From Escherichia phage K1H, in the sequence record NC_027994.1: 41,632 nucleotides of DNA; one strand, given 5' to 3'. A model generated the notes under the pieces. That model saw only the letters and a list, made by a program, of their open reading frames with translations, made no database searches and had not been told where the DNA came from. Made by a program: the position numbers and the translations under genes. Below, one piece after another: positions 2,767 to 39,062 of the stretch (position 1 is the first letter of the stretch; each line of letters begins with the position of its first letter).

Positions 2767-2789
2767 AGCCCCGAAAGGGGCTTTCTTAT
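2767..2789 (+). terminator. Intrinsic terminator-like hairpin after portal gene
   Basis: AGCCCC-GAAA-GGGGCT stem-loop followed by TTCTTATA. Confidence 0.5.
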
Positions 2790-2792
2790 AGT

Positions 2793-3869
2793 ATGCTATT
2801 AACTTTAGCGCCACAGGGTTTATCTATGAGCTTACTTACATCACTAATCAGCCACCAAATATGGCTGCAACGCACCGCATCCGGTGAGGTGAAAGACCTC
2901 GCGCCGTTCATTAAGGAGATGCGGGACGAAATCAAACGGCAGGTGCTGCTATTCGGCGACGACGGTCGCAGCACTGCGCGACTGAATAAACTGTTACGTG
3001 ACCTTGAAGAAGTACTGACAGGACTTACTGGTGACTGGCAAACAAAGCTGGCAGAAGACCTCAAGGAACTGGCGGTGTATGAAGCTGAGTGGAACGTAAA
3101 GACCCTGACCGCCAACGTAGATGCGGAATTTGTTACGCCCACCGCCGAACAGGTGTGGGCCGCTGCTGAGTTTCAGCCATTATCATTGAGTGGCAAGCCA
3201 GTTGATTTCACTAAACTGATGTCAGGTTGGGGTGAAACGGAAGTAGCACGTCTTGTAACCAGCGTTAAGATGGGCTTTGTACAAGGTCAAACAACACGGC
3301 AGATTGTTAAGAATGTAGTAGGCGCCGGTGGGCTGGCTGACATCTCTGAGCGTAACGCCGCTACCGTCATCCGCACCGCGCTGTCTCACGTGTCCAACGA
3401 AGCCCGTAACGAGACGTACCGCCAGAACGACGACATCATCGAGAAGTACGAGTGGGTGTCAACGCTTGACAGCCGCACCAGTACGATTTGCAGGGTCAGA
3501 GACGGGATGACGTGGGAAATTGGTAAGGGGCCGATACCCCCAGCCCATCCGAACTGCCGGTCGTGCACGGCTCCGGTAATCAGTTCCGAGTTCGACTTCC
3601 TCGATAAAGGCGCAAAACGCGCGGCTAAAGGCGCGGAAGGTGGCACTCAGGTAAGCGCAGACACCACTTACTACGAGTTCCTTAAACAACAACCGGCGTG
3701 GTTTCAGGACCAGGCGCTCGGCCCGGTGCGAGGTAAGATTTTCCGTAACAGCGGTATATCGCCGGAAGAGTTTCGCGTAATATCTGTAGATGGTTTCGGG
3801 AATCCGCTCACGCTTAAGCAGATGGCGGAACTCGATAAACGTGTTGCTGATTATCTGAAAGGGTATTAA
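2793..3869 (+). CDS. Head morphogenesis protein (putative, Mu F / SPP1 gp7-like by position)
   Basis: 358-aa ORF between portal and capsid assembly genes; start uncertain (2793 or internal ATG near 2826). Confidence 0.55.
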   Translation: MLLTLAPQGLSMSLLTSLISHQIWLQRTASGEVKDLAPFIKEMRDEIKRQVLLFGDDGRSTARLNKLLRDLEEVLTGLTGDWQTKLAEDLKELAVYEAEWNVKTLTANVDAEFVTPTAEQVWAAAEFQPLSLSGKPVDFTKLMSGWGETEVARLVTSVKMGFVQGQTTRQIVKNVVGAGGLADISERNAATVIRTALSHVSNEARNETYRQNDDIIEKYEWVSTLDSRTSTICRVRDGMTWEIGKGPIPPAHPNCRSCTAPVISSEFDFLDKGAKRAAKGAEGGTQVSADTTYYEFLKQQPAWFQDQALGPVRGKIFRNSGISPEEFRVISVDGFGNPLTLKQMAELDKRVADYLKGY

Positions 3870-4330
3870 TGATGGGCTTTTTCAAAGTAACTGATGTACC
3901 GTCACGTCGCGTAGTCCAGTACGCCCGCGTGTCTGGCTCTGGTGAGAACGTGGTGTTTATTGATGATGAAAGTGTACTCGGTACACCCGAAGACGATATG
4001 CCGTTTGCAGATAAAACCGGTATTGCGTTACCCGCGGCGGGCATGCTTTATGAAATTCCGTATCTGGCGGATGCAGGTGACGTGTATTTCTCGGTGCAAC
4101 CGAAAGACACCGAGCTGGTCGACGGTAGCGCCACCATCACCGTCGAAGTTAAGGCGGGTAAAGCGCCGTGTGTACTGACCTGGTACAAAGACGGTAAGGA
4201 AGTGGTAAACGCCCCGGAAGAGGCTTTGTCTCTAACGGTTAATGCAGTTGGCGAATACTTTGTTAAAGTTACTGATGCCGATGGTGTAGAGGCCGTAAGC
4301 AAAGCGGCGAAGGTTACTAAGCCAGAATGA
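3869..4330 (+). CDS. Hypothetical structural protein
   Basis: 153-aa ORF with ATGA-type overlap to upstream gene; followed by bidirectional terminator. Confidence 0.5.
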   Translation: MMGFFKVTDVPSRRVVQYARVSGSGENVVFIDDESVLGTPEDDMPFADKTGIALPAAGMLYEIPYLADAGDVYFSVQPKDTELVDGSATITVEVKAGKAPCVLTWYKDGKEVVNAPEEALSLTVNAVGEYFVKVTDADGVEAVSKAAKVTKPE

Positions 4331-4331
4331 T

Positions 4332-4359
4332 AAAAGGCCCCTTTCGGGGCCTTATTTTT
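4332..4359. terminator. Bidirectional intrinsic terminator
   Basis: GGCCCC-TTTC-GGGGCC with T-run on + strand and A-run (T-run on - strand) on the other side. Confidence 0.6.
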
Positions 4360-4361
4360 CA

Positions 4362-4463
4362 TCAAAGTTCACCATTCCCGCTATCTGCGTCCTCGACCCC
4401 GCTAACAGCCCACACAAACAATCCTAAATTAACCAGTAACACAAATGAAATTGCTACCATCAT
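4362..4463 (-). CDS. Small hydrophobic peptide (33 aa, MMVAISFVLLVNLGLFVWAVSGVEDADSGNGEL)
   Basis: Internal ATG of track ORF 4362..4553; GGAGG Shine-Dalgarno 4-5 nt upstream; own promoter (TTGCAG-17-TACTAT) and terminator; single predicted TM helix. Confidence 0.4.
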   Translation of the reverse strand: MMVAISFVLLVNLGLFVWAVSGVEDADSGNGEL

Positions 4464-4489
4464 AACCACCTCCACTATACGTTTACTTA

Positions 4490-4518
4490 ATAGTACCCTA
4501 TTATGTTGGTGTCTGCAA
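4490..4518 (-). promoter_or_regulatory. Sigma70-like promoter, class 1 (TTGCAG-N17-TACTAT) with embedded dyad TAATAG-N4-CTATTA
   Basis: -35 at about 4513-4518 and -10 at about 4490-4495 (minus strand); spacer nearly identical to three other class-1 promoters. Confidence 0.5.
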
Positions 4519-4559
4519 ACTATTTGTTTACGTATTCCAGTTATTCCACTCAATTGTAA

Positions 4560-4584
4560 ATGTTGGAATAAGCTATTCGAATAG
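4560..4584. repeat. Half-site cluster GAATAA / CTATTC / GAATAG plus ATGTTGGAATAA direct-repeat copy 1
   Basis: ATGTTGGAATAA (4560-4571) recurs at 5343-5354; CTATTCGAATAG is a perfect 12-bp palindrome (4573-4584) abutting a -35 hexamer. Confidence 0.6.
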
Positions 4585-4613
4585 TTGACTTTTCACCAAA
4601 AATGTGCTAAGCT
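4585..4613 (+). promoter_or_regulatory. Sigma70-like promoter (TTGACT-N17-TAAGCT with TGn extended -10)
   Basis: TTGACT 4585-4590; TG at -15/-14; weak -10 TAAGCT 4608-4613. Confidence 0.4.
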
Positions 4614-4792
4614 CCACCTGAGCTTGTGAAGTATGAACAAGCGACCGCGGCGCGGGCAGGTAACGGAGCGGGACGTAAGTCCTGAGTGTAGTTACGCTGA
4701 CGCGTTCGGAAGGGCCATACTCTATTGCTTGTGTAAAAAGTAACTGGTTTACTGAGATTACGCCGTTTCTATGTTTAAATGATAAGGACTAG

Positions 4793-4820
4793 CGCCCCGC
4801 TTTAAGGCGGGGCTTTACTT
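4793..4820 (+). terminator. Intrinsic terminator
   Basis: GC-rich stem CCCCGC/GCGGGG followed by CTTTACTT; the same hairpin sequence recurs inverted at about 34970. Confidence 0.5.
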
Positions 4821-4837
4821 ATCGAGAAAGGGGAAAC

Positions 4838-5224
4838 ATGAATCTTAAAGCAACTGTCGTAGCGGGAGCATGTTTCATCATCCTGGCTTACGCACACGGC
4901 ATCTACCAGTATCGCAGCGGCTGGAACGGAGGCCGGGCAAATCTCGTTTCGCAGCAACAGCAGAAAGCACAGGCTGAGTTAGCTAAGAAAACACAACGGC
5001 AGCAGCAGGATGAGTCGAAGGCCGCAGCCGCTGATAACGAAGGCAAGACGAAATCAGAGGTAATCACCCGTGAAGTCGTTAAGTACATTAAAACGCCTGG
5101 CCGCAGCGTGTGCACTTTTGACCCTGAGCGCGTGCAGCTCAAGTCCCGCGCCGTCGCAAACGCCAATTCCATCCCCGGATACGACGATGATGCAGCCGCC
5201 GTGCAAACTGGCACTGCCAAGTAA
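4838..5224 (+). CDS. Rz: i-spanin (Rz-like)
   Basis: 128 aa; N-terminal TM segment, Q/A/K-rich coiled-coil periplasmic domain; contains overlapping +1-frame lipoprotein ORF; AAAGGGG SD upstream. Confidence 0.75.
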   Translation: MNLKATVVAGACFIILAYAHGIYQYRSGWNGGRANLVSQQQQKAQAELAKKTQRQQQDESKAAAADNEGKTKSEVITREVVKYIKTPGRSVCTFDPERVQLKSRAVANANSIPGYDDDAAAVQTGTAK

Positions 5225-10441: not shown

Positions 10442-10996
10442 TTACAAACCTAATCTTAAAGCAATGCCTATAGCGTTCGATTTAACGTAACCCGGTATGA
10501 TGTAGGTGTCATAATCTTTTACACCATCAATATCGTACAGGTAACCGCGGCTGTCCCCTTCAAACGTATGGCCGTCTCTGTGCAAGCGGACGATTCTCAC
10601 ATCATGCCCCGCGGCAACGATAGGGGCTACTTCGCTGGCGAACCCGCCATCAGACACCACAAAAACTTCGTCGCCGTCGGGCAAGTTTCCGGCAAGATAC
10701 TTACCGAAATAATCATCACCGAATACCGGTTTAATGAATTGCTCGGAAATGGCAATCATGAACTGACGCCGAGACAACCCGTTAAGGAAACCCTCTGGCT
10801 TTTCTTTCCGCGCCCGGTCGTCGTAGCCGTCGAGAAACTCGCGGTAAGCATCCCGGCCTAACGCAGCCATAGCAATATTGAACATCGGATTCTTGAAACT
10901 GGCGACACCCTTCGCAAAGCCCATTTCTACCAGCGCCCTAGCAAGTGTGTCTTTCCCGCAGCCCGCAGGACCATTAAGAATAATTACCTTAGCCAT
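10442..10996 (-). CDS. P-loop nucleotide/nucleoside-monophosphate kinase-like protein
   Basis: 184 aa; Walker A GPAGCGKDT near N-terminus (GKDT variant as in phage dNMP kinases). Confidence 0.55.
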   Translation of the reverse strand: MAKVIILNGPAGCGKDTLARALVEMGFAKGVASFKNPMFNIAMAALGRDAYREFLDGYDDRARKEKPEGFLNGLSRRQFMIAISEQFIKPVFGDDYFGKYLAGNLPDGDEVFVVSDGGFASEVAPIVAAGHDVRIVRLHRDGHTFEGDSRGYLYDIDGVKDYDTYIIPGYVKSNAIGIALRLGL

Positions 10997-11481
10997 TATT
11001 TATCACTCCCATGTGGTTTTAAGTGTGTAGAGTTCCCGTTACAGTCGTATTCAGTAACTGCGTGAGTGGTTATGCCGAGTTCGCGGAAATGCTTTATTAC
11101 CGCTGGAGAGTCGTCGAATGCACACAAGATTCTCTCCGGCCCAATAGCACGCAACACCTCTTCTTTAATTACGATGTCTTTTCTGTTGTCGTGTTTGCTG
11201 CGCATGATTAACTGATAAAATTCGACGCGGTGGCGCTGCAACCACATTCTGGTTTCTTTTTCCGCGTCATCACTACGGCCTGTTAAGATAATAACGGCAT
11301 AGCGACGATTAAGGGCGTTACACAGTTCGATGTTATCTTTAATGGGTGCATCGTCTTTGCACGCCATGTTAAATGGTTTCCACGCCCAGGTTTCGCCGTA
11401 GTTATCTTTCGGCAGCAGGTGTAAACGATGGGTACCATCTGCCAATGTCCCGTCTAAATCGAAAATCACAATATCTTTCAC
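10996..11481 (-). CDS. HAD-superfamily phosphatase (nucleotidase or Pnk-phosphatase-like)
   Basis: 161 aa; N-terminal DxDGT motif (FDLDGTL). Confidence 0.6.
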   Translation of the reverse strand: MKDIVIFDLDGTLADGTHRLHLLPKDNYGETWAWKPFNMACKDDAPIKDNIELCNALNRRYAVIILTGRSDDAEKETRMWLQRHRVEFYQLIMRSKHDNRKDIVIKEEVLRAIGPERILCAFDDSPAVIKHFRELGITTHAVTEYDCNGNSTHLKPHGSDK

Positions 11482-12608
11482 CCAAGCATCTCCGGTGAAA
11501 TAGTTAAACGTGCGACCTCGCCATATTCGGCGCTATAAGTAATTACGTTTGCACTGCGGCCCGACATCCACCCACCGCGGGAGGCATATGCATCTTTAGC
11601 CGCGAGAGTGCGGTGTTGCTCAACAATCATGTTACGGCTTTCTACAATCTTTTGGTGGTGCAGGTGACCCACGTGGGCGTAGCTGTAAACACTCTCGCCG
11701 AACGCTTTGCGGAACTTGGCGATCATAACCGGTTCGATAGCGTCGAATCGTGCTTTATGCCCATGATGGAAGAACAGCGTCGTTTTGCCGTGTTGCACCA
11801 TCTTGTAAACATCCGGCGACGTATCGACGAACACACGCGGCTCATTGTCATACAGCGTACTAAACATCTCAGCTAACCAAATCATTCCGCTTTCGTCGTG
11901 GTTACCTTGCACGATAAGCAAGCGAACATTTTTATGTTTAACGAGAGCCATATCAATGACACGGCGGACCATACGAATCATGTAGCGTACAAGTTTCTGA
12001 TAGCGGGTGTCAGCGTCAAGAACATGACCACTGGCAGGTGTAACGGCGTCCAGACTATCGAAATGCGCAAGGTCGCCCAGCAGATTAATAACTCCTGTTC
12101 CGGTATCCGGTGCTTTCTGGAACGCTGCGTCGAACCAGCGGGAGAACAGGTCTTCCGCAATCTTCATGTCCCAGTCGTCGCCGCTCTCGTCAGCCCAGGC
12201 CAGCATACCGAGATGGAAATCAGACACAGTGTAAAGGTTGAGTAGCTTGTCGTCTCGTTTGGCGCGAACGGCTTTAACAGGTGCAACTGGTGTAATCTCC
12301 GACTTCATGCCTTCGATTACGGCTTTCATCAATTCAACCTGACGTTCGGCATCGGTGTCGGTCTTAACCCATTGCAACTTGGTGTTGCCAAACTCATCCA
12401 CCAGTGATGACGTTCCTTTAATCTTGTAGCCGTCCGGTACAAGGTAACTAACGTCACGCCCGTGGCCTACACCTTTCTTAGCCAGCTTCGCTTTACGGAT
12501 ACGAATAACGCGGTCGGAGATGCCGTATTTACGGGCGATGTCGATATTCTTCATACCGGCGTTCAATTCTTCCTGCAACTGTTCGTCGGTTATTTTCTTC
12601 TGGGCCAT
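11478..12608 (-). CDS. Calcineurin-like metallophosphoesterase with N-terminal HTH domain
   Basis: 376 aa; motifs DFH, GDLAHFD, GNHDE, HHGH, GHLHH; N-terminal approx 50 aa HTH-like; GAGGAAG SD. Confidence 0.65.
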   Translation of the reverse strand: MAQKKITDEQLQEELNAGMKNIDIARKYGISDRVIRIRKAKLAKKGVGHGRDVSYLVPDGYKIKGTSSLVDEFGNTKLQWVKTDTDAERQVELMKAVIEGMKSEITPVAPVKAVRAKRDDKLLNLYTVSDFHLGMLAWADESGDDWDMKIAEDLFSRWFDAAFQKAPDTGTGVINLLGDLAHFDSLDAVTPASGHVLDADTRYQKLVRYMIRMVRRVIDMALVKHKNVRLLIVQGNHDESGMIWLAEMFSTLYDNEPRVFVDTSPDVYKMVQHGKTTLFFHHGHKARFDAIEPVMIAKFRKAFGESVYSYAHVGHLHHQKIVESRNMIVEQHRTLAAKDAYASRGGWMSGRSANVITYSAEYGEVARLTISPEMLG

Positions 12609-12673
12609 GCTTACTTCCTCGTGTTTAGGATTTGTCCTATTTAACCACAGTGCATTCCTTTAAATAAAGGCGA

Positions 12674-13000
12674 CTATTTACTTTCCGCACCTATTGCCCA
12701 TCCGGTCATTACCATTTGCAGACGCGTGGCTGTCAGTAGGCTGTAGAATGCATCTCCGTTTTTCTCTACAGAACGTATTACCGTGTAGGTTACGGCTTGC
12801 GGGGGTAGGCCCGATTTACCAACCTCTACGGCGGCCTCACACTCGCGAACTGTAGAGTCCTTAAATGCCTTTACAATAGTAGGGTCGGCTTTCTCAAGCA
12901 CACCAGAAGTCATAAGAACAGATTCACTAAATACCTGTTCGCACGGGGCCCCAAAAGTAGCAAAAGACATAAGCCCCAGAGCTAATACTAATTTACGCAT
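12674..13000 (-). CDS. Small secreted/periplasmic protein (signal peptide)
   Basis: 108 aa; N-terminal MRKLVLALGLMSFATFGAP signal sequence; GAGGGA SD; class-1 promoter directly upstream. Confidence 0.5.
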   Translation of the reverse strand: MRKLVLALGLMSFATFGAPCEQVFSESVLMTSGVLEKADPTIVKAFKDSTVRECEAAVEVGKSGLPPQAVTYTVIRSVEKNGDAFYSLLTATRLQMVMTGWAIGAESK

Positions 13001-13028
13001 AATTGTTCCCTCAGTAAGTTACAGGTGA

Positions 13029-13057
13029 ATAGTACCCTATTATATTGGGGTGTGCAA
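13029..13057 (-). promoter_or_regulatory. Sigma70-like promoter, class 1 (TTGCAC-N17-TACTAT) with dyad GAATAG-TACC-CTATTA
   Basis: -35 at 13052-13057, -10 at 13029-13034 on minus strand; 34-bp segment nearly identical to 35234-35268. Confidence 0.55.
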
Positions 13058-23549: not shown

Positions 23550-24979
23550 TTCTTACCTCGTCTCTTCATGTAATTAAGCAACTCTTCCTGTACAGATTTC
23601 TTCTCGTCGGTTCGCGCGGCAACAACTTCGTCCAGCGTGTCTTTAGCAACGATGTGGTACAGGAACACCGGCCTCTCGTGTCCTGCCTGTTTCTGGCGGA
23701 CCGGGCCTATTCGCTCGACAACCTGCAAATAGTGTTCAAGATTCCAGCCTTGCGAGATGAACGCCAGATGGTGTCCGCCGTCCTGTAAATTCAAACCATG
23801 ACCGGCTGACGCAGGGTGGACGCACAAAATCTCGATTTCGCCGCGGTTCCATGCTTCCATCTGCTTATTACCCTTAGCACCTTTCGCGAATGCCTGCGCC
23901 TGCGGGAAACGTTTCAGGATACGCTCCAGTTCGTGCTTGAACTGATAGGCTACCAGTAGCGGAGCACCCTGTAACTCCTCAACAATTGACTCCAGCGCAT
24001 CCAGTTTCGTGTCGTGCACTTTCTCCCAGTCTTTGGTTGCTTCTCCGTCTGGCCCTGATACATACACAGCACCAGAAGCAATCTGCAAACACTTTGACGT
24101 CTTTGCCGCGGCGTTAGCCGCTTCAACTTCTCCGCTTTCCAGTTCCGCGAATAACTTTTCCTCCATATCGATGTACGCCTGACGCGCCTTCTTCGGCAGG
24201 TCGATTTCAACCGGTACAATAATCGGCGCTTCGCAACCAAACCACTCGGCGGCGTCAATCGTGAGACTAATGTCTTTCATCTTCTGATGAATCTCATTAT
24301 CCGCACCCGGTCGTGCGTGATACTCCCGCGCCATCGCGGATTTCCCTTTCTGTACCGAGTTAAACCAGCGGTCTGTGAATGCCGTGTACGAAGAACCAAG
24401 GCAACCAAGGCGCTCGCCAGCGTCGATAAACCAGTTCTGCCCCCACAAGTCCTTGAGGCCGTTCGGCGACGGTGTGCCTGTCAGGTTAATGAAACGCTTA
24501 ACCTTTCCGAACGCCACTTTGCTTAGCGCCTTAGCCCGTTTGCTTCCTCCAGAACGGCTACGGAAAGATTTCAGCTTCGTGCTCTCATCAGCAACGATAA
24601 CCGTAAAAGGCCAGTCGTCTTTGCCGTAGTAGTCAATCAGCCACTCGATAACTTCGTAGTTTGTGCACACCACGTTAGCATCTGACTCCAGCGCCGCGAT
24701 ACGGCGCTTCTCTGAACCGGTTGCGTCTACGACACTCAGACAGGGGAAGTTCCAACGTGCCTGTTCCGCGGGCCACGTACCTGACGCAACACGTAAAGGA
24801 GCCAGAATTAACACTCGGTCGTCGTCATTAAGTTGCCCATTACGGAACAGCCGATTGAGAACCCACAACGTTGACCCCGACTTACCGCTGCCCATGCTCG
24901 CCCAGATATTGCAGCGATGGTGCCGCAGCATGAACGAAGTCATGAGCTTCTGGTATTCGCGCCTTTGAAACTTACTCAT
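23546..24979 (-). CDS. SNF2/DEAD-like superfamily II helicase
   Basis: 477 aa; Walker A-like SMGSGKS, DExx box VADEST, C-terminal helicase motifs. Confidence 0.75.
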   Translation of the reverse strand: MSKFQRREYQKLMTSFMLRHHRCNIWASMGSGKSGSTLWVLNRLFRNGQLNDDDRVLILAPLRVASGTWPAEQARWNFPCLSVVDATGSEKRRIAALESDANVVCTNYEVIEWLIDYYGKDDWPFTVIVADESTKLKSFRSRSGGSKRAKALSKVAFGKVKRFINLTGTPSPNGLKDLWGQNWFIDAGERLGCLGSSYTAFTDRWFNSVQKGKSAMAREYHARPGADNEIHQKMKDISLTIDAAEWFGCEAPIIVPVEIDLPKKARQAYIDMEEKLFAELESGEVEAANAAAKTSKCLQIASGAVYVSGPDGEATKDWEKVHDTKLDALESIVEELQGAPLLVAYQFKHELERILKRFPQAQAFAKGAKGNKQMEAWNRGEIEILCVHPASAGHGLNLQDGGHHLAFISQGWNLEHYLQVVERIGPVRQKQAGHERPVFLYHIVAKDTLDEVVAARTDEKKSVQEELLNYMKRRGKK

Positions 24980-25796
24980 TTACCGCCCCCATAAACGCCT
25001 TTATAAATTCGGCGGCTACTTGCGGGACGATGGCATTGCCGTAACCGCGCAATCGTCCCACTCTGGCGGGTATCCCATTAGCCAGCGGGAATGCGCCGGG
25101 TTCAACCGGCCGGAACTTTCCATCACGGCATCCGAGCCAGTCAGCATCTGACCAGAAGCCGTGGTGCGGGTTGGTTGACTCGCTTTCAATCCCTGCTCTG
25201 TTGAGTAGTCCAGCCTGTCGAATGTTCTGTCCCTCCCGTCCGTGCGAATCACTGTCTCTCCGCTCCCTCTGAAGTCGTTCGCTGTCGGTGTAGGCCAGTT
25301 CGTGCGCGCCAAAGAAGAGTCGTTCTCTTTTGTGCGGTGCGCCGACGCTACAAGCTGGGAGTACAGCAAACCCGACGGCGTAGTCTTCTCCTTCCAGGTG
25401 AGCTTGTAAATCGCACATCCACGATTTTGCAATTGCTGCCGCAACCTGCTCCCCAAAGATGACTGGAGGGCGGCACTCGCTGATGAGGTCGAGGAAGACC
25501 GGCGCGAGGTGTCTCGGGTCGAACTGTCCGAGTTGCTTTCCCGCCGCGCTAAACGGTTGGCAAGGCGGGCTTCCCGTCCAGAGAGGCGCATCTTCCGGAA
25601 CTCCCGCAAGTCTGAGCGCGAGAGGCCAGCCGCCGATACCCGCGAAAAAATGACACTGGGTGAACCCGTCAAGGTCTTCTGGCTTAACTTCGGTAATGCT
25701 TCTTTCATCTACAACTCCAAAAGGTATGTGACCCTGTTTTATCAACTCACGCAGCCACGCGGCTGCGCCTTTATCCCATTCATTGTAATAGTTCAT
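24972..25796 (-). CDS. DNA (cytosine-5)-methyltransferase (orphan)
   Basis: 274 aa; motif I FAGIGG and motif [13 protein letters not shown] (catalytic Pro-Cys); no adjacent restriction endonuclease. Confidence 0.7.
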
Positions 25797-26014: not shown

Positions 26015-26314
26015 CTAACTATAATAGCTAGCTATTAGGTCGTCAACCTGTTTAAACGAACCAACGACAAAAACATTCGCACCACGTTTACGCATCCGCT
26101 CATGTTCCCGTAGCTGGTGCGGGTCTGGCTTCGTGTTCTCGTCTTTCTTAACCTCGACGAACCAGACTATGCCGCCGGGGAGAATTACCAGCAGGTCTGG
26201 GGCGCCGGAACGCCCCTCGTAGGAGAGTTTGCGAACGAGGCCGCCAAGGGCCTCGAATCGGTCTTTTGCGTATTTCTGTACGCGGCCCTCTTTAGTCATG
26301 AGCGTAGATCCCAA
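26015..26314 (-). CDS. VRR-NUC domain nuclease (putative)
   Basis: PD-(D/E)XK-like ...PDLLVILPGG...VEVKK; likely true start is the ATG 5 codons in (ATGA overlap with upstream small ORF). Confidence 0.55.
   Translation of the reverse strand: MGSTLMTKEGRVQKYAKDRFEALGGLVRKLSYEGRSGAPDLLVILPGGIVWFVEVKKDENTKPDPHQLREHERMRKRGANVFVVGSFKQVDDLIASYYS
26018..26046 (-). promoter_or_regulatory. Sigma70-like promoter, class 2 (TTGACG-N17-TATAGT) with perfect 16-bp palindrome TAATAGCTAGCTATTA
   Basis: Minus-strand -35 at about 26041-26046 and -10 at about 26018-26023; overlaps 3' end of VRR-NUC gene. Confidence 0.55.
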
Positions 26315-29571: not shown

Positions 29572-29600
29572 ACTATAATAGCTAACTATTCAGGTGTCAA
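29572..29600 (-). promoter_or_regulatory. Sigma70-like promoter, class 2 (TTGACA-N17-TATAGT) with dyad TAATAG-CTAA-CTATTC
   Basis: Minus-strand -35 at 29595-29600, -10 at 29572-29577. Confidence 0.55.
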
Positions 29601-30870: not shown

Positions 30871-31124
30871 TGGTCAATTAAATGTCGTGTCTTATGGTCG
30901 CAGTGCATAGCCCAGCCATACATCGACTCGAAGACGTAAAAGTCCGGTTTGGCGAAAGTCGTGCGCTTAATATGTGACACGTGGCGGCCTATGTCTTTAG
31001 GCCGTGGCACTTTGCCTAAGTACGCCATATCTTCCATCTGGTGCGAGCCAGACGGCGCACGTAACAGCCATAGCGCCTCTGTGCTATCCCTCCTGTCTAC
31101 GGCGCGGTAGAGTTGGTAAATCAT
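30852..31124 (-). CDS. Hypothetical protein
   Basis: 90 aa; GAGGG SD; hairpin upstream. Confidence 0.45.
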   Translation of the reverse strand: MIYQLYRAVDRRDSTEALWLLRAPSGSHQMEDMAYLGKVPRPKDIGRHVSHIKRTTFAKPDFYVFESMYGWAMHCDHKTRHLIDQWESRV

Positions 31125-31167
31125 AATCCCGACCCTCAGTTAAAGCGGCCCGAAGGCCGCGGGATAA

Positions 31168-31686
31168 TTATTCTTCTTCGAAATACTTGTTCTTGATTGC
31201 CGTCAGGCGTTCCAGGTATTCGGCAAGGTCTTCGTCTTTAATCGCGGCAATCTTCATCTTCTTACCGGTGAACTCTTCCAGCAGTTCATCGGAATCATCG
31301 CACGCGGCGTCGCTCGGACCTTCGTTAATTGCATCGTCGATAGCCTGAATCTGGTCACGCAGAGACTGGTAATCTACTTCTTCCTTCTCTTCCGGTTCTG
31401 GCGTCGGTTCCTCTACTTTAGATTTACGCGGCTTGCGTTTCGGCTTCTCTTCTTCTGCTGGTTTAGTGTCGACGATGTCTTCACCTTCAACCGGGATTTC
31501 TTTCGCCTTCTCGACTTCTTCAAGTGCTTTAGCCAGTTCTTTTTTAACTGTCTCTACCCCAGTTACCGCGACGTCAACAGTCAATTCACCTACAGATTTG
31601 CTAGTCGGTTGTTTCACACTGTTTGCAGCAATCAGTTCGTGGGCGACTACGAAACGTTCCAGTAATACCAAGAATTTCTCTAACAT
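31168..31686 (-). CDS. Highly acidic early protein (function unknown)
   Basis: 172 aa, very rich in Glu/Asp with short lysine-rich patch; first gene of leftward operon from class-2 promoter; GAGGAG SD. Confidence 0.5.
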   Translation of the reverse strand: MLEKFLVLLERFVVAHELIAANSVKQPTSKSVGELTVDVAVTGVETVKKELAKALEEVEKAKEIPVEGEDIVDTKPAEEEKPKRKPRKSKVEEPTPEPEEKEEVDYQSLRDQIQAIDDAINEGPSDAACDDSDELLEEFTGKKMKIAAIKDEDLAEYLERLTAIKNKYFEEE

Positions 31687-31717
31687 TTGTTTCTCTCCTC
31701 TCGTTTGGTATGTGTTA

Positions 31718-31747
31718 ACTATAATAGCGAACTATTCACGTTGTCAA
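31718..31747 (-). promoter_or_regulatory. Sigma70-like promoter, class 2 (TTGACA-N18-TATAGT) with dyad TAATAG-CGAA-CTATTC
   Basis: Minus-strand -35 at 31742-31747, -10 at 31718-31723. Confidence 0.55.
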
Positions 31748-31751
31748 TGGG

Positions 31752-31782
31752 CTTTTCTAAAATAATTAATATGGTACTATTC
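31752..31782 (+). promoter_or_regulatory. Weak plus-strand promoter (-10 TACTAT, poor -35) with dyad TAATAT-GGTA-CTATTC
   Basis: TACTAT at 31775-31780; overlaps the divergent class-2 promoter; AAGGAG SD before ATG 31812. Confidence 0.4.
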
Positions 31783-31811
31783 ACATATCAACTGACTAAG
31801 GAGTAATTGAC

Positions 31812-32027
31812 ATGCAACCATCTGAACTAGGCATCCGTGTAGAACAGCGCCGTAAAGAACTCGGCATTTCCCAACGCCGTCTGGCTGTCCTGGCCGGTGT
31901 TTCCCAGGGCGCGATTAACCAGCTGGCACTCGGTGTAACTAAGGACGTCCGCCCAGCGACGCTGTTTAAACTGGCGGAAGTGCTAGAGGTAGACGCCAAG
32001 TGGCTGGCGTTCGGTGAAGGGGCTTAA
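31812..32027 (+). CDS. XRE-family (Cro/CI-type) HTH transcriptional regulator
   Basis: 71 aa; RRKELGISQRRLAVLAGVSQGAINQ... typical HTH_XRE helix-turn-helix. Confidence 0.7.
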   Translation: MQPSELGIRVEQRRKELGISQRRLAVLAGVSQGAINQLALGVTKDVRPATLFKLAEVLEVDAKWLAFGEGA

Positions 32028-32042
32028 CGCCCCTTTCTTTTT
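32018..32042 (+). terminator. Intrinsic terminator after HTH gene
   Basis: GGGGC-TTAAC-GCCCC plus TTTCTTTTT; stop codon lies in loop. Confidence 0.55.
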
Positions 32043-32044
32043 GC

Positions 32045-34312
32045 CTATTCTAAATCCTCCTCTGTCACTGTTAACAGTTCATTCGGTTCGTATATCGTCT
32101 TCGGAATCTTGTTATCAGTTATCCGGGTGTTCAGCCTGTAACGGCCAGGGATTATCTGATTGTTTTCGTCAGTCCCCGGAACAAGATACCCAGCCTCAAC
32201 CATTTTCTTAATCTTCCCGCGTTCTATGGCTTCTTTGGAGTTAAACGCCTTTGCATTGGGGTCAGACTGTGCGAGCTTATTAGCGGCGGCGACTGTGATG
32301 CCTTCGTTGCCGTTGTAGGTTCCTTCCGCCAGTTCAAACGCCGCCAGTATCGTGGCTTCTGAACTGTTGACGGCGTTCTCTATGGTTTTACGTACGTTTT
32401 CTTTACCTTCTTTCGTCAACCCTTCTTCCCGCTCTTTCTCCTCGTCAGTCTTGAACGGCTCGAAACCCCACGGCATTAACACAAGTGCCTTATGCGGCTC
32501 CGGCAGGTCGAGGTTTACGATTGTGCCGTATTCCTCCGTGCTACCGAGGAACTCAACCGCACGGTACTCTTTCGGCGGCGGCGCTTCACGGAACTGTACA
32601 GACTCCAGCACCATACCAACCGTCTTCTGTTGAGGCCCGTGCTTGAATTTCGAGTGGTATACATTTATCTGGCGGTCGGTAGCTCGTTCGATTGTCAGTT
32701 CCACGTCGACGCCAGCATACAGCGCCCCACTGCCACGGGCTTTCTTTCCGCCCTTCGGCGTATGGTGGACAACGCCTACCGCAGCTTTAGTCGCGTCACG
32801 TACTTCTTTCAGGATGGCGATAACCTTACCCATGCCGATTGCCGTTGATGAACTGTTCTCGTCGAACTTATCAATCGTCAGGGCTAGCGTCTGGTTGAGG
32901 GTGTCGAACGCAACCATGCCGATGGGTTCGTCACCCGCAGTTTCACGCATCAACTTAATCAGGCTTTTCAGTTTTCCGACTTCGCCCATGTCGATGACAT
33001 GTACATAATCTTTACCTTCCTCGCTATACTTAGCTGCGAGCGCATCGATACGGGTGCGTGTAGCTGCGCCGCCCTCACCGTCGATATAAAAATGGTGGCA
33101 ACGCTGCGTATCTGCCCCCGCAAACCGGTATCCGGCGGCGCTCAGGTACATCATCCCCAGCGTATAGAACGATTTGTACGTTCCGGATTCCCCGACAATA
33201 TCCCAGATACAATCTGACGGCATGTACCCTTCAACGACGAAATCCGCCTTTACCGGTTCCGGTAACTCGTCATCCTCTGAGTCCTCGTCATCTTCCAGGT
33301 CGTCGAGGCTGCATGAAACAGATTCACGTGCACCCCATCCGATGGCCTCTGCGACTTCACTGAACGGCAGCCCCGTCGCATCGCACGCATACTTCCACAC
33401 CTCTTTCGGTGACATGCCTTCGGTCGCCGTAATGTCAGTGTCGTGAATCATGGTTACGTTCGGCGCCTCATATCCCTCTCGCGGGAAGCACAGCAGGAAG
33501 TCATCCGGGCGCGGCGTCGGGTCGCTGTAGTTTTCTGCGTGTTCTGGCGTAGCTGGCATCTTAAGGCCTCGTGGCGTCATGATACCGCCATACTCGAACG
33601 CCAGTGCCTCGAACGCGTCGGTAAACGCGGTGCGCAGTTCTTCCGGTATCTGGTAATCCGATGCGCTGCTAACGTCAACGGCAGGGATGCCTTCCAGTAA
33701 CTCGTCCGGGTCAATCAGGTCGTTGCGGCGTGACCAGATAACGGTAGAGCCAACCGGAGGCAGGTACATCGGTTGCGAAAGAGTGAACCCGCTGCGGTCA
33801 GCACCCATGCTTTTGAAGAAGTGTTCCAGCAATCCATGGCGAACACGGATGATGTCACCACCTTCGACCGGACGGGCCAGCGGCATGACGACGCGAAAGC
33901 GCGGGGACTCGTCGGTATGTGATGCCGTGGTATAGATACACATGCCCCGGCGGCTGCGTTTAACTAAGCGCACCGCTTCCTGATACTCTTCTGGTGTTGC
34001 GCTGTCGAAGTCCAGATACGCCAGCGACGATTTGCTTACAGACGCGTCACAGCGATAGAAAAAGCCTTTACGCGCTTGCTTAAAGTCGCCGGTTTCCGGG
34101 TCTTTTACAGTGCTGTGCGTCGAGTCGCACGCGGCGGTGATATAACCGGGCGCGGTCTTCGGGTTAATTCCGTCACGGACAGCATCGAGTGGCTGGATTA
34201 ACTCTTTCAGGTCGTCCAGTGTTGCCGTGTGTGTGGTTCTGACGTTTATATCCTTTTTCTCTGCCCGCGCGTTGCGACGTGACCACGAGTAGGATAAAAT
34301 TACATCGGACAT
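32045..34312 (-). CDS. DNA primase/helicase-like replication protein
   Basis: 755 aa; central RecA/P-loop-like segment GESGTYKS and hhhhD motif VAFDTL; assignment by size and context. Confidence 0.65.
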   Translation of the reverse strand: MSDVILSYSWSRRNARAEKKDINVRTTHTATLDDLKELIQPLDAVRDGINPKTAPGYITAACDSTHSTVKDPETGDFKQARKGFFYRCDASVSKSSLAYLDFDSATPEEYQEAVRLVKRSRRGMCIYTTASHTDESPRFRVVMPLARPVEGGDIIRVRHGLLEHFFKSMGADRSGFTLSQPMYLPPVGSTVIWSRRNDLIDPDELLEGIPAVDVSSASDYQIPEELRTAFTDAFEALAFEYGGIMTPRGLKMPATPEHAENYSDPTPRPDDFLLCFPREGYEAPNVTMIHDTDITATEGMSPKEVWKYACDATGLPFSEVAEAIGWGARESVSCSLDDLEDDEDSEDDELPEPVKADFVVEGYMPSDCIWDIVGESGTYKSFYTLGMMYLSAAGYRFAGADTQRCHHFYIDGEGGAATRTRIDALAAKYSEEGKDYVHVIDMGEVGKLKSLIKLMRETAGDEPIGMVAFDTLNQTLALTIDKFDENSSSTAIGMGKVIAILKEVRDATKAAVGVVHHTPKGGKKARGSGALYAGVDVELTIERATDRQINVYHSKFKHGPQQKTVGMVLESVQFREAPPPKEYRAVEFLGSTEEYGTIVNLDLPEPHKALVLMPWGFEPFKTDEEKEREEGLTKEGKENVRKTIENAVNSSEATILAAFELAEGTYNGNEGITVAAANKLAQSDPNAKAFNSKEAIERGKIKKMVEAGYLVPGTDENNQIIPGRYRLNTRITDNKIPKTIYEPNELLTVTEEDLE

Positions 34313-34370: not shown

Positions 34371-34691
34371 TTATTCCAGGTCGTGGGAGATATTACCCTC
34401 GGGCACCAACACTTTTCCAATACTTCTCGCTTTCTCTGTAATAGGCGTCGCTCTTGTTGCCCGATAAAACTTTCCTTTATTAAGAATCTCACCATGTCGC
34501 TCGAGCACATCTAAAGCATGTTTGATCGGGTTTACACCGTAATTATCCAACCGGTATCTCCGAAGCCCGTCTACCGTAAAAGCGCCGTTCGCTTCGGTCA
34601 GTCTGCGTGCACACATTAATATGTGTTTCTGGAATTTAGTTAGCATCTTTAACGTTCTCCTTAATCCACGCCTCCACAGTAGCGCGGTCAA
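34371..34691 (-). CDS. Hypothetical protein
   Basis: 106-aa track ORF overlapping upstream gene by 56 nt; true start probably an internal ATG. Confidence 0.4.
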   Translation of the reverse strand: MTALLWRRGLRRTLKMLTKFQKHILMCARRLTEANGAFTVDGLRRYRLDNYGVNPIKHALDVLERHGEILNKGKFYRATRATPITEKARSIGKVLVPEGNISHDLE

Positions 34692-34815
34692 AGGTACCTG
34701 GCTGACGGTAGCCGTTAATAACCCGGCAACACTCAGGGAACTTACCCGACCGCAGCCAGCGATTAAGCGTCATAGGAGAAACTCCGATTAAGTCTGCTAC
34801 TTCTTTCTGTGTCAT
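34636..34815 (-). CDS. AlpA/excisionase-family HTH DNA-binding protein
   Basis: 59 aa from ATG 34815 (AGAGGG SD); MTQKEVADLIGVSPMTLNRWLRSGKFP... matches AlpA-like pattern. Confidence 0.55.
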   Translation of the reverse strand: MTQKEVADLIGVSPMTLNRWLRSGKFPECCRVINGYRQPGTFDRATVEAWIKENVKDAN

Positions 34816-34844: not shown

Positions 34845-34873
34845 ACTATAACACCCACAATAGCCAAACACAA
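34845..34873 (-). promoter_or_regulatory. Putative minus-strand promoter (TTGTGT-N17-TATAGT)
   Basis: TATAGT -10 as in class-2 promoters; 23 nt upstream of AlpA-like ATG. Confidence 0.35.
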
Positions 34874-34877
34874 CCTA

Positions 34878-34905
34878 TTGACAAAATAAAATGTAGCTGT
34901 AAAAT
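34878..34905 (+). promoter_or_regulatory. Strong sigma70-like promoter (TTGACA-N16-TAAAAT)
   Basis: Consensus -35, near-consensus -10; faces a 390-nt region lacking any ATG. Confidence 0.55.
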
Positions 34906-35236
34906 CAATGTATCGAAGGACCTTAATTCAGAATTACTTAGAAACATCATTCTTAAGTCTCGGGTACTTAAAGCCCCGCCCTAAAGCGGGGCGCTAAACA
35001 GTACTCTTGGTAACGTTAGTATCTAAGTTTCCTCAAAGTAACAGCAAGTAGCAAGAAAGCCTCCGTCTATTTAAATTTTACCCTCCTTCATAAGCTACTG
35101 ATAATTAAAAGTTTCTATAGTTGCCGTAAGCGAGGTAGAGAGTACTTCACTCCGCTGGGGTGGGCTAACGCCCACCCACTGCGTTGCGTACTCCTTTAAG
35201 AAACGAAAGAATCACAACGGCAACGTAACTATTCTC

Positions 35237-35267
35237 TTGCACACCCCAACATAATAGGATACTATTC
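35237..35267 (+). promoter_or_regulatory. Sigma70-like promoter, class 1 (TTGCAC-N17-TACTAT) with dyad TAATAG-GATA-CTATTC
   Basis: -35 35237-35242, -10 35260-35265; about 30 nt upstream of first early-right gene. Confidence 0.55.
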
Positions 35268-35299
35268 ACTTATCGGAACGAGACAGAGGAGTGAGGGTT

Positions 35300-36569: not shown

Positions 36570-36600
36570 TTGCACACTAAGATAGAATAGGCTACTATTC
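36570..36600 (+). promoter_or_regulatory. Sigma70-like promoter, class 1 (TTGCAC-N17-TACTAT) with dyad GAATAG-GCTA-CTATTC
   Basis: -35 36570-36575, -10 36593-36598; perfect 6-bp half-sites. Confidence 0.55.
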
Positions 36601-37507: not shown

Positions 37508-37800
37508 TGTCGTTAGCAACTGACATCCTGAAACGAAGCGGCCTTGCGCCGCTGTCGCCGAGAGCGAATACGCGTATACACAAGCGCCGCCGTAATGCAC
37601 TGTACCCCGAGATTCAGGCCAGACGCAAAGCGGTACGCGCCTGTGGATTCCAGAACGGGAAGGCTGTGAATCTCGGTGAGTTTAAAACACAGGAACGCGC
37701 AGCAATCGCTAATCGGCTATTTAATTACTGGAAATCGTTGGGATACGATGATATTCCGACGAAACCGCAGAGACGCCAATACATCTGGAGACATAAATAA
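37507..37800 (+). CDS. Hypothetical basic protein
   Basis: 97 aa, Arg/Lys-rich. Confidence 0.5.
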   Translation: MSLATDILKRSGLAPLSPRANTRIHKRRRNALYPEIQARRKAVRACGFQNGKAVNLGEFKTQERAAIANRLFNYWKSLGYDDIPTKPQRRQYIWRHK

Positions 37801-37831
37801 ACAACTATTAGGATAATTCCTACCCGTGGTA

Positions 37832-39012: not shown

Positions 39013-39033
39013 TCTATTTTCTGCAATGACTAG

Positions 39034-39062
39034 TTGACTATTACTCTTACACCAATTATATT
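39034..39062 (+). promoter_or_regulatory. Sigma70-like promoter (TTGACT-N17-TATATT)
   Basis: Right after terminator, about 35 nt upstream of small gene at 39096. Confidence 0.5.

Follow-up and report, generated by a model that had tools for sequence, protein, structure and literature searches.

The 41,632-nt sequence of Escherichia phage K1H (NC_027994.1), referred to here as the window, carries at positions 31,718 to 32,027 a pair of divergent promoters followed by a gene for a 71-amino-acid (aa) helix-turn-helix (HTH) protein of the XRE family. The subject of this analysis is an inverted repeat, AATAG-N4-CTATT, that lies in both promoters and recurs elsewhere in the window, together with the protein that may read it. 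The window is that of a virulent siphophage of the Guernseyvirinae (Kagunavirus, K1G-like), a group of 41-45 kb siphophages regarded as strictly virulent; region 31000-33000 is 96.6% identical to Escherichia phage K1G and also matches hundreds of Kagunavirus and Jerseyvirus genomes. Approximately 92% of the window is coding. Leftward from the divergent promoters, the genes run in the order 172-aa acidic protein, 90-aa protein, DUF2800/PD-(D/E)XK nuclease, Enc34-type single-stranded DNA (ssDNA)-binding protein, DNA polymerase A, methylase and SNF2 helicase. The 71-aa HTH gene is transcribed rightward, convergent with the leftward helicase-primase gene, and forms a one-gene transcription unit, because an intrinsic terminator overlaps its stop codon. 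The helicase-primase operon opens with another small HTH gene, which is of the HTH_17 (Xis/MerR-like) type. The XRE and helicase genes are co-oriented in other clades. At window positions 31812-34312, the XRE and helicase-primase genes have only 51% and 58% identity, respectively, to their counterparts in the Jerseyvirus wksl3, far below the 87-92% of the adjacent genes, which suggests from the sequence comparison that both were exchanged as a module between Kagunavirus and Jerseyvirus.

The gap between the leftward ORF (open reading frame) and the HTH gene measures 125 bp (31687-31811). An earlier, sequence-only reading of this DNA had described there a leftward TTGACA-N18-TATAGT promoter, a rightward TACTAT element and two dyads; all of these were found where that reading had placed them, and the two promoters do stand back to back, each with a dyad over its spacer or -10. 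The name it gave to the dyad, GAATAG-N4-CTATTC, fitted less well, since GAATAG is the left half at neither site (Table 1); the conserved unit of both dyads is the 5+4+5 core AATAG-N4-CTATT, here termed O1 and O2. In an alignment of 34 distinct Kagunavirus and nine Jerseyvirus versions of the promoter region, the -35 and -10 of the leftward promoter were invariant in the 34 Kagunavirus versions, with a spacer of 17 bp in many and 18 bp in the window. This promoter is predicted to drive the acidic-protein, nuclease and ssDNA-binding operon. The rightward promoter of the HTH gene has no usable -35. Jerseyvirus phages have TTGCAC-N17-TACTAT at this site, and an 11-bp deletion in Kagunavirus removes the -35; because the Jerseyvirus TACTAT sits 17 bp past TTGCAC, TACTAT is supported as the true -10 of the HTH gene. 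Whichever plus-strand promoter is used, dyad 2 covers the -10 or the start site, and O2 is the presumed autoregulatory site of the HTH gene. The predicted start sites of the divergent promoters, near 31711 on the minus strand and 31787 on the plus strand, are ~76 bp apart, and the centres of O1 and O2 are separated by 45 bp, or by 44 bp in many relatives. Cooperative looping between the two operators was judged unlikely, as a spacing of 44 or 45 bp according to the phage does not match the helical repeat. A role of the dyads in RNA was also set aside: they lie upstream of the predicted start sites, and Rfam gave no match anywhere in the window.

Table 1. Predicted regulatory elements and genes of the window referred to in the text (positions on the 41,632-nt stretch).
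Feature	Position	Strand	Remarks
Dyad 1, TAATAGCGAACTATTC	31722-31737		left half TAATAG
Dyad 2, TAATATGGTACTATTC	31767-31782		left half TAATAT
Operator O1, perfect, AATAG-CGAA-CTATT	31723-31736		in spacer of leftward promoter, touching its -10
Operator O2, imperfect (one mismatch), AATAT-GGTA-CTATT	31768-31781		over -10 of HTH gene promoter
Leftward promoter, class A	31718-31747	minus	-35 TTGACA 31747-31742, 18-bp spacer, -10 TATAGT 31723-31718; 11/12 in consensus scan
Rightward HTH gene promoter, extended -10 TGgTACTAT	31772-31780	plus	TACTAT 31775-31780, TG at -15/-14
Alternative promoter TTCACG-N17-TAAAAT	31735-31763	plus	9/12 in consensus scan
Ribosome-binding site AAGGAG	31798-31803	plus	8 nt before ATG; kept in Kagunavirus and Jerseyvirus loci
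XRE/434-Cro-type HTH protein, 71 aa	31812-32027	plus	recognition helix VSQGAINQLALG; proposed dyad reader
Intrinsic terminator, GC hairpin and T run	32016-32046	plus	overlaps HTH gene stop codon
Acidic protein, 172 aa	31168-31686	minus	phrog_3127, function-unassigned PHROG; first gene of leftward operon; kept in all clades
HTH_17 (Xis/MerR-like) small DNA-binding protein	34639-34815	minus	Pfam HTH_17, 4.8e-9
Class A promoter TTGACA-N17-TATAGT	29572-29600	minus	perfect dyad 29577-29590; drives Enc34-type ssDNA-binding protein and DNA polymerase genes
Class A promoter TTGACG-N17-TATAGT	26018-26046	minus	perfect dyad 26023-26036; drives methylase and SNF2 helicase genes
Class B promoter TTGCAC-N17-TACTAT	35237-35266	plus	perfect dyad 35253-35266; upstream of rightward small-gene cluster
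Class B promoter TTGCAC-N17-TACTAT	36570-36599	plus	perfect dyad 36586-36599
Class B promoter TTGCAC-N17-TACTAT	13028-13057	minus	perfect dyad 13028-13041; drives leftward cassette in tail module
Class B promoter TTGCAG-N17-TACTAT	4489-4518	minus	perfect dyad 4489-4502; drives ~34-aa hydrophobic peptide gene
Class D promoter TTGACT-N17-TATATT	39029-39062	plus	-35 in one-mismatch dyad ACTAG-TTGA-CTATT 39029-39042; orthologous site 5687 in wksl3
Class D promoter TTGACT-N17-TAAGCT	4580-4613	plus	-35 in one-mismatch dyad AATAG-TTGA-CTTTT 4580-4593; extra half-sites 4567-4584
One-mismatch dyad AATAA-ACAA-CTATT	37796-37809		upstream of lysis genes; status uncertain
One-mismatch dyad TATAG-TATG-CTATT	2787-2800		overlaps start codon of Mu-F-like head morphogenesis gene; status uncertain

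The sequence-only reading had supposed that the dyad marks a whole set of promoters, and on this point it was borne out. With up to one mismatch, 12 sites were observed, against 0.99 ± 0.95 expected from 100 dinucleotide-preserving shuffles, none of which reached 12; seven copies are perfect, where ~0.02 would be expected. Among all 5-mer dyads with spacers of 0-8 bp, AATAG-N4-CTATT ranks first genome-wide, the runners-up being GC-rich terminator stems, and it is also the top-ranked dyad in non-coding DNA alone. A chance origin of the dyad set is excluded.

The seven perfect and five one-mismatch sites span positions 2.8 to 39 kb. All seven perfect copies are at regulatory positions; two appear to overlap ORFs, of which one is spurious (4327-4584), while the other overlap consists of the last codons of the upstream gene. 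Every perfect site stands on a sigma-70-type promoter, and the dyad promoters serve three replication/recombination operons, the HTH gene, the rightward small-gene cluster, the tail-module cassette and the ~34-codon peptide gene. At class A sites (26023, 29577 and 31723, all on the minus strand) the promoter reads TTGAC(A/G)-N17/18-TATAGT and the dyad begins 4-5 bp after the -35, whereas class B sites (plus-strand 35253 and 36586, minus-strand 13028 and 4489, and 31768, which is without a -35) show TTGCA(C/G)-N17-TACTAT with the dyad 10 bp after the -35. Relatives display a third register, with a 7-bp gap and a -10 of TATTnT. Finally, in class D, i.e., the one-mismatch sites 39029 and 4580, the -35 TTGACT falls inside the dyad itself. 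The -10 hexamer differs by register (TATAGT or TATATT at 4-5 bp, TATTnT at 7 bp, TACTAT at 10 bp), and it always lies 17-18 bp from the -35. Because the dyad covers the core promoter in several registers, it fits a separate operator-like element at which a repressor occludes the promoter; a polymerase contact or an activator site does not fit, because either would need one fixed register.

The pattern of conservation points in the same direction. At dyad 1, both half-sites are invariant in Kagunavirus, whereas the central 4 bp occur in six versions (CGAA, CTAA, CGAG, TGAA, CAAA and CTAG), and the stretch from the dyad to the -35 is variable in sequence and, through a 1-bp indel, in length. For eight core sites in 35 Kagunavirus loci, variable columns amounted to 6/80 in the half-sites, 20/32 in the central spacer and 105/192 in the flanks; the flanks were matched without gaps, which possibly inflates their variability and leaves the comparison of half-sites with spacer (Fisher p = 3.5e-9) unaffected. 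Conservation is equally strong in the upstream half-site, which is outside the -10, and in the downstream half-site. Both half-sites are under selection. Dyad-like sequences over the -10 of the XRE promoter were also seen in other clades (ATTAC-TGTA-CTATT in Jerseyvirus, AATAC-TACG-GTATA in the AH01 clade).

These data bear on the idea that the dyad has no dedicated reader and is either a by-product of an AT-rich promoter, with overlapping -10-like hexamers on both strands, or a junction that aids recombination of modules. In its favour, the right half-site overlaps or abuts -10-like hexamers, such that TACTAT, TATTAT and TATAGT can all be fitted into taCTATTatagt; a recombination breakpoint adjoins O1 in three Jerseyvirus loci; and many dyad promoters flank inserted cassettes. 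However, the upstream half-site lies in the spacer, which is not normally conserved in sigma-70 promoters, and yet is equally invariant, while the four central bases vary freely and the position of the dyad relative to the -35 and -10 has at least three values. The last point and the equal conservation of the upstream half led us to rule out the dyad as simply part of the -10, and we regard the absence of any dedicated reader as very improbable.

The gene next to O2 encodes a plausible reader. As the sequence-only reading had proposed, it is Cro-like: the 71-aa protein matches Pfam HTH_3 (PF01381) with an E-value of 2.2e-12 and 47.2 bits against a cut-off of 23, its best sequence match in the PDB is 434 Cro (E 1.9e-7, over the full length, both proteins being 71 aa) and its PHROG class is 'transcriptional repressor'. 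An AlphaFold model (predicted local distance difference test score, pLDDT, 88) has five helices and superimposes on the 434 repressor and 434 Cro with template modelling (TM) scores of ~0.8, the Foldseek matches being 1pra (TM 0.81) and 2cro and 3cro (TM 0.76-0.83, 43% identity); overall, identity to 434 Cro is 39-43%. By sequence and predicted fold, the protein is thus a 434-Cro-type member of the XRE/HTH_3 family. Dimers of 434-type proteins recognize 14-bp dyads whose outer bases are conserved and whose centre varies, and Gln28 of 434 contacts the outermost adenine of the operator. All clades have this Gln28 (434 numbering), and A is the outermost base of the operator here. Within Kagunavirus the recognition helix is invariant even at 77% overall protein identity. 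A search for homologues in independent contexts returned only Kagunavirus-type phages with an identical recognition helix, and so provided no independent test. A 45%-identical homologue is the cro gene beside cI in the lambdoid Klebsiella phage RCIP0034, where the intergenic region contains ACAA-N6-TTGT 14-mers.

Which protein reads the dyad was addressed by comparing 80 loci encoding XRE homologues and five complete genomes from different clades. The XRE gene was present in every clade examined. The HTH_17 gene was confined to Kagunavirus and Jerseyvirus genomes, and tblastn (E up to 1) did not find it in the complete genomes of phiEap-2 (Enterobacter) and AH01 (Pantoea). Nevertheless, dyads are strongly enriched at promoters in both of these genomes: AATA-N6-TATT occurs eight times in phiEap-2 against 0.47 expected and nine times in AH01 against 0.45, and the counts of enriched dyads overall are 4-8 and 7-9, respectively, against 0.1-0.5 expected. 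In AH01, there are five perfect copies of AATAC-N4-GTATT (~0 expected), including at promoters orthologous to those of the window, and AATAG-N4-CTATT is entirely missing from that genome; the recognition helix of AH01 is MTQGGIGHIVTG, compared with VSQGAINQLALG in the window. The TO17 clade has its own small set, ATTAG-N4-GTATT. Because the AH01 half-sites changed concertedly and symmetrically at many promoters, a symmetric trans-acting reader with shifted specificity is required, which is hard to reconcile with a dyad that nothing reads. The XRE protein is the best-supported candidate, since in these comparisons dyads persist without HTH_17 and the operator changes with the XRE helix. The suggestion of the sequence-only reading that the HTH protein binds the dyads is favoured to this extent, binding itself being deduced from such comparisons.

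The second small HTH protein deserves separate consideration. If the dyads were operators read by HTH_17, seemingly the product of an early gene, the XRE protein would regulate other targets or only its own promoter. The two genera to which HTH_17 is limited are those where the AATAG regulon is densest, and its sequence is more alike between them (~84% by eye for the commonest Kagunavirus variant, 71% for the window copy) than that of XRE (51%); moreover, phages commonly use an early regulator to act on later promoters. To our knowledge, proteins of the HTH_17/Xis type lack a dimerization module, and short symmetric dyads are not usually their targets. The putative DNA-reading helix of HTH_17 is SPMTLNRW in the window but TRRTLNNW in other Kagunavirus phages, with no change in the dyads, and the XRE gene's own promoter has a dyad also in clades devoid of HTH_17. 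As a general reader HTH_17 was ruled out, because it is missing from complete genomes that bear dyads, and we consider it distinctly unlikely that it reads those of the window. In the K1B4 transcriptome, which is coarse and the only one available for Kagunavirus, the early class includes an HTH-domain gene of the HTH_17 region, and the middle class a gene described as 'specific DNA binding' that adjoins the AAA helicase (PMC12645636); the first of these is probably the HTH_17 gene. This dataset proved too coarse for assigning promoter classes.

Several observations weigh against the XRE protein as the reader. Gene 004 of K1B4, the one in the middle class, probably corresponds to the XRE gene, given its place beside the AAA helicase. 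The AATAG consensus is common to Kagunavirus and Jerseyvirus, yet identity between the XRE proteins of the two genera is only 51%, with differences at helix positions 29, 30, 32 and 33 (434 numbering), while HTH_17 is better conserved than XRE between these genera, in parallel with the shared dyad; one of the helix differences, G29S, also occurs in a Kagunavirus variant whose dyads are unchanged. When the same four helix positions were set against operator position 5 in seven clades, no simple residue-to-base rule was found. In clades P and T the XRE gene is retained while dyads are few or absent, from which it follows that regulon size is not fixed for this protein family; a de novo dyad search gave no dominant dyad in clades P or W and only 3-4 sites in T. 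The sequence around dyad 2 is conserved throughout, and the footprint of this dyad is therefore little informative.

A host protein, or another phage protein such as a NinH/Fis-like or unannotated small protein, could also read the dyad, the adjacency of the XRE gene then being coincidental. About half of the small ORFs in the window have no family assignment, a NinH-like gene is present in relatives, and operator variants partly track host genus (E. coli/Salmonella, Pantoea, Enterobacter). Against this, wksl3 and TO17 are both Salmonella phages and differ completely, the first having AATAG dyads and the second none; because these two phages infect the same host genus, a host factor is argued against and a host-factor site was considered unlikely. 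The 14-bp 5+4+5 geometry and the presence of sites on the XRE promoter in several clades fit a Cro-type autoregulator. Furthermore, the recombination boundary in the three Jerseyvirus loci falls just left of O1, which indicates that the operators are inherited together with the XRE gene. We know of no E. coli regulator with an AATAG-N4-CTATT consensus. A reader of this kind is, in our view, unlikely.

On balance, we think it probable from these sequence data that AATAG-N4-CTATT is the 14-bp operator of a phage-encoded dimeric HTH repressor, most probably the 71-aa 434-Cro-type protein, in an autoregulated, Cro-only system with operators genome-wide. Repression is suggested by the position of the operators: an XRE dimer bound over the spacer and -10 of host sigma-70-type promoters, or over the -35 of two of them, would block RNA polymerase. 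Occupancy of the perfect O1 would shut the strong leftward promoter of the replication operon, and occupancy of O2, with its one mismatch, would shut the weak extended -10 promoter of the regulator itself, i.e., negative autoregulation. Perfect operators are found at the replication promoters, the rightward small-gene promoters and two inserted-cassette promoters, and the presumably weaker one-mismatch operators at the regulator's own promoter and at promoters upstream of lysis and structural genes. From the position and quality of the operators we infer a graded timing, in which rising XRE would occupy the tighter perfect sites first and so lower early and middle transcription first, with a shift toward late genes, while its feedback would hold output steady despite the growing genome copy number. 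The XRE protein would thus act as a Cro-like governor in a phage without CI, integrase or its own RNA polymerase. Nothing that would give two stable states was found in the window, and the evidence points to a one-regulator negative-feedback circuit rather than a bistable switch. A broader proposal is that in the Guernseyvirinae, a large group of lytic phages used in therapy, most transcription is governed by one Cro-only repressor of 71 aa, with graded operators at nearly all promoters that are not immediate-early, with no phage polymerase, sigma factor or CI, and with naturally orthogonal, co-diverged repressor-operator pairs (AATAG, AATAC, ATTAG/AATAC); such a repressor would set the timing and offset the increase in genome copies. 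This we put forward tentatively, as a possibility that is rather less likely than its opposite.

Like 434 Cro and its OR region, the proposed system combines an all-helical HTH_3 protein of 71 aa with a 14-bp dyad in which the outer bases are conserved and the centre varies, and its regulator gene lies immediately downstream of the divergent promoters that bear the operators. It differs in having no cI opposite, two operators ~45 bp apart instead of three in tandem, an AATAG-N4-CTATT operator instead of ACAA-N6-TTGT, and at least ten operators genome-wide instead of OR and OL only, as well as in the virulence of the phage. With lambda PR/PRM it has in common the back-to-back divergent promoters with dyad operators and a Cro-like gene on the right; the lambda start sites are ~82 bp apart. 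The sequence-only reading had taken this likeness to indicate a lambda-like genetic switch, which our results do not uphold. Two dyads, each over one promoter, take the place of three tandem shared operators, and there is no antagonistic second repressor and no cooperative OR1-OR2 pair. The divergent gene is not of the CI type, unlike that in RCIP0034, where the homologue has cI opposite; it encodes the 172-aa acidic protein, which has no Pfam family, and instead of a repressor the leftward transcript specifies this protein followed by replication and recombination functions. Family scans and PHROG classes revealed neither lysogeny genes nor a CI-type partner in the window. The absence of an integrase, noted already by the sequence-only reading, was borne out in all larger ORFs scanned, the window of 41.6 kb leaving a small part of the genome unseen when set against the 43-45 kb of related genomes.

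Other known systems resemble the proposed one in part. P1 C1 and the 'stoperators' of mycobacteriophage L5 gp71 are cases in which one small repressor uses many operators scattered over the phage genome, at or within transcription units, and many dispersed copies of one operator are also what the window contains. P1 and L5 are temperate, their repressors maintain lysogeny and their sites are asymmetric, those of L5 being roadblocks within transcription units; in contrast, the window operators are symmetric and lie on core promoters, and the phage is virulent, with no prophage to maintain. The C proteins (C.AhdI, C.BclI and C.Esp1396I) are likewise small XRE-type dimers of similar fold (TM ~0.7) with dyads over their own promoter, which time expression after a mobile element enters a naive cell. 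They differ in their restriction-modification context, in the paired C-boxes used for activation and repression and in having no genome-wide regulon. In the window, the XRE gene forms a transcription unit of its own, flanked by the replication operon and the helicase gene; no restriction enzyme was found beside it, and the cytosine methylase (24972-25796) is 6 kb away. A precedent for an XRE-family regulator in a strictly virulent phage is TgrL of Caulobacter phage phiCbK, a repressor expressed in infection with 99 direct targets, 93% of them repressed (PMC10688885). The described targets of TgrL are mainly host genes and it has interacting host paralogues (PMC10688885), whereas the operators of the window belong to promoters of the phage itself, and the XRE protein has no known host paralogue.

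In the searchable literature, we found no description of transcription control in Kagunavirus or Jerseyvirus, nor of a dyad regulon; papers on these phages label the XRE gene 'repressor/DicA/Cro' or report no repressor. The dyad-XRE regulon is therefore apparently undescribed for the two genera, although an HTH dimer that occludes promoters is a textbook mechanism. Kagunavirus and Jerseyvirus phages are very widely isolated and used against E. coli and Salmonella. If the proposed circuit is correct, it would explain ordered gene expression in a phage wholly dependent on host RNA polymerase, and a 'repressor' label in therapeutic phages would be no sign of lysogeny. It would also supply an operator and promoter map for engineering small genomes, as well as a small set of naturally occurring repressor-operator variants with different specificities. 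Small genomes of the Kagunavirus type have been proposed as chassis for synthetic biology, and some Kagunavirus isolates could be obtained only on E. coli K-12 without cryptic prophages (BASEL collection preprint). One possibility is that a prophage repressor cross-reacts with phage operators, or the phage XRE protein with prophage operators.

Beyond the dyad promoters, the strongest dyad-free promoter of the window lies in a 445-bp non-coding region at 34.85-35.29 kb, which heads the HTH_17/helicase-primase operon and a rightward leader; the promoter in front of the HTH_17 gene, the first of its operon, has no dyad. Within 34846-35290, two strong divergent dyad-free promoters overlap in their -35 boxes (TTGACA at 34878-34883 on the plus strand, TTGTCA at 34884-34879 on the minus strand). 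The half-sites AATAG (34859-63) and CTATT (34875-79) are both present there, 11 bp apart instead of 4, and two GC-rich hairpins (34970-34995 and 35153-35183) have no Rfam match. This region could be an immediate-early control region, a replication origin or a small-RNA locus.

Three further loci carry dyads or half-sites. The one-mismatch dyad at 2787-2800 directly follows a terminator hairpin and is kept in wksl3 at 42386. A self-contained insert between head genes (4332-4518) holds a peptide gene of ~34 codons (MMVAISFVLLVNLGLFVWAVSGVEDADSGNGEL, 4466 to 4362), with a bidirectional terminator (4332-4356) at its end; at this spot relatives hold other small genes, e.g., a RusA-like gene. The stretch 4567-4837 contains four clustered half-sites, including a perfect 12-bp palindrome, CTATTCGAATAG (4573-4584). 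After the half-sites at 4567-4584 come the promoter TTGACT-N17-TAAGCT, an untranslated leader of ~215 nt that includes a terminator-like hairpin (4791-4816) and, directly after it, an Rz-like spanin gene at 4838, and the region may be a regulated leader or a small RNA.

The leftward cassette in the tail module (10442-13057) encodes a 108-aa protein with a signal-peptide-like N-terminus, a metallophosphatase of 376 aa, a PNKP-type HAD phosphatase of 161 aa and an AAA_18 kinase-like protein of 184 aa; judged by these predicted families, it looks like an RNA- or DNA-end repair set.

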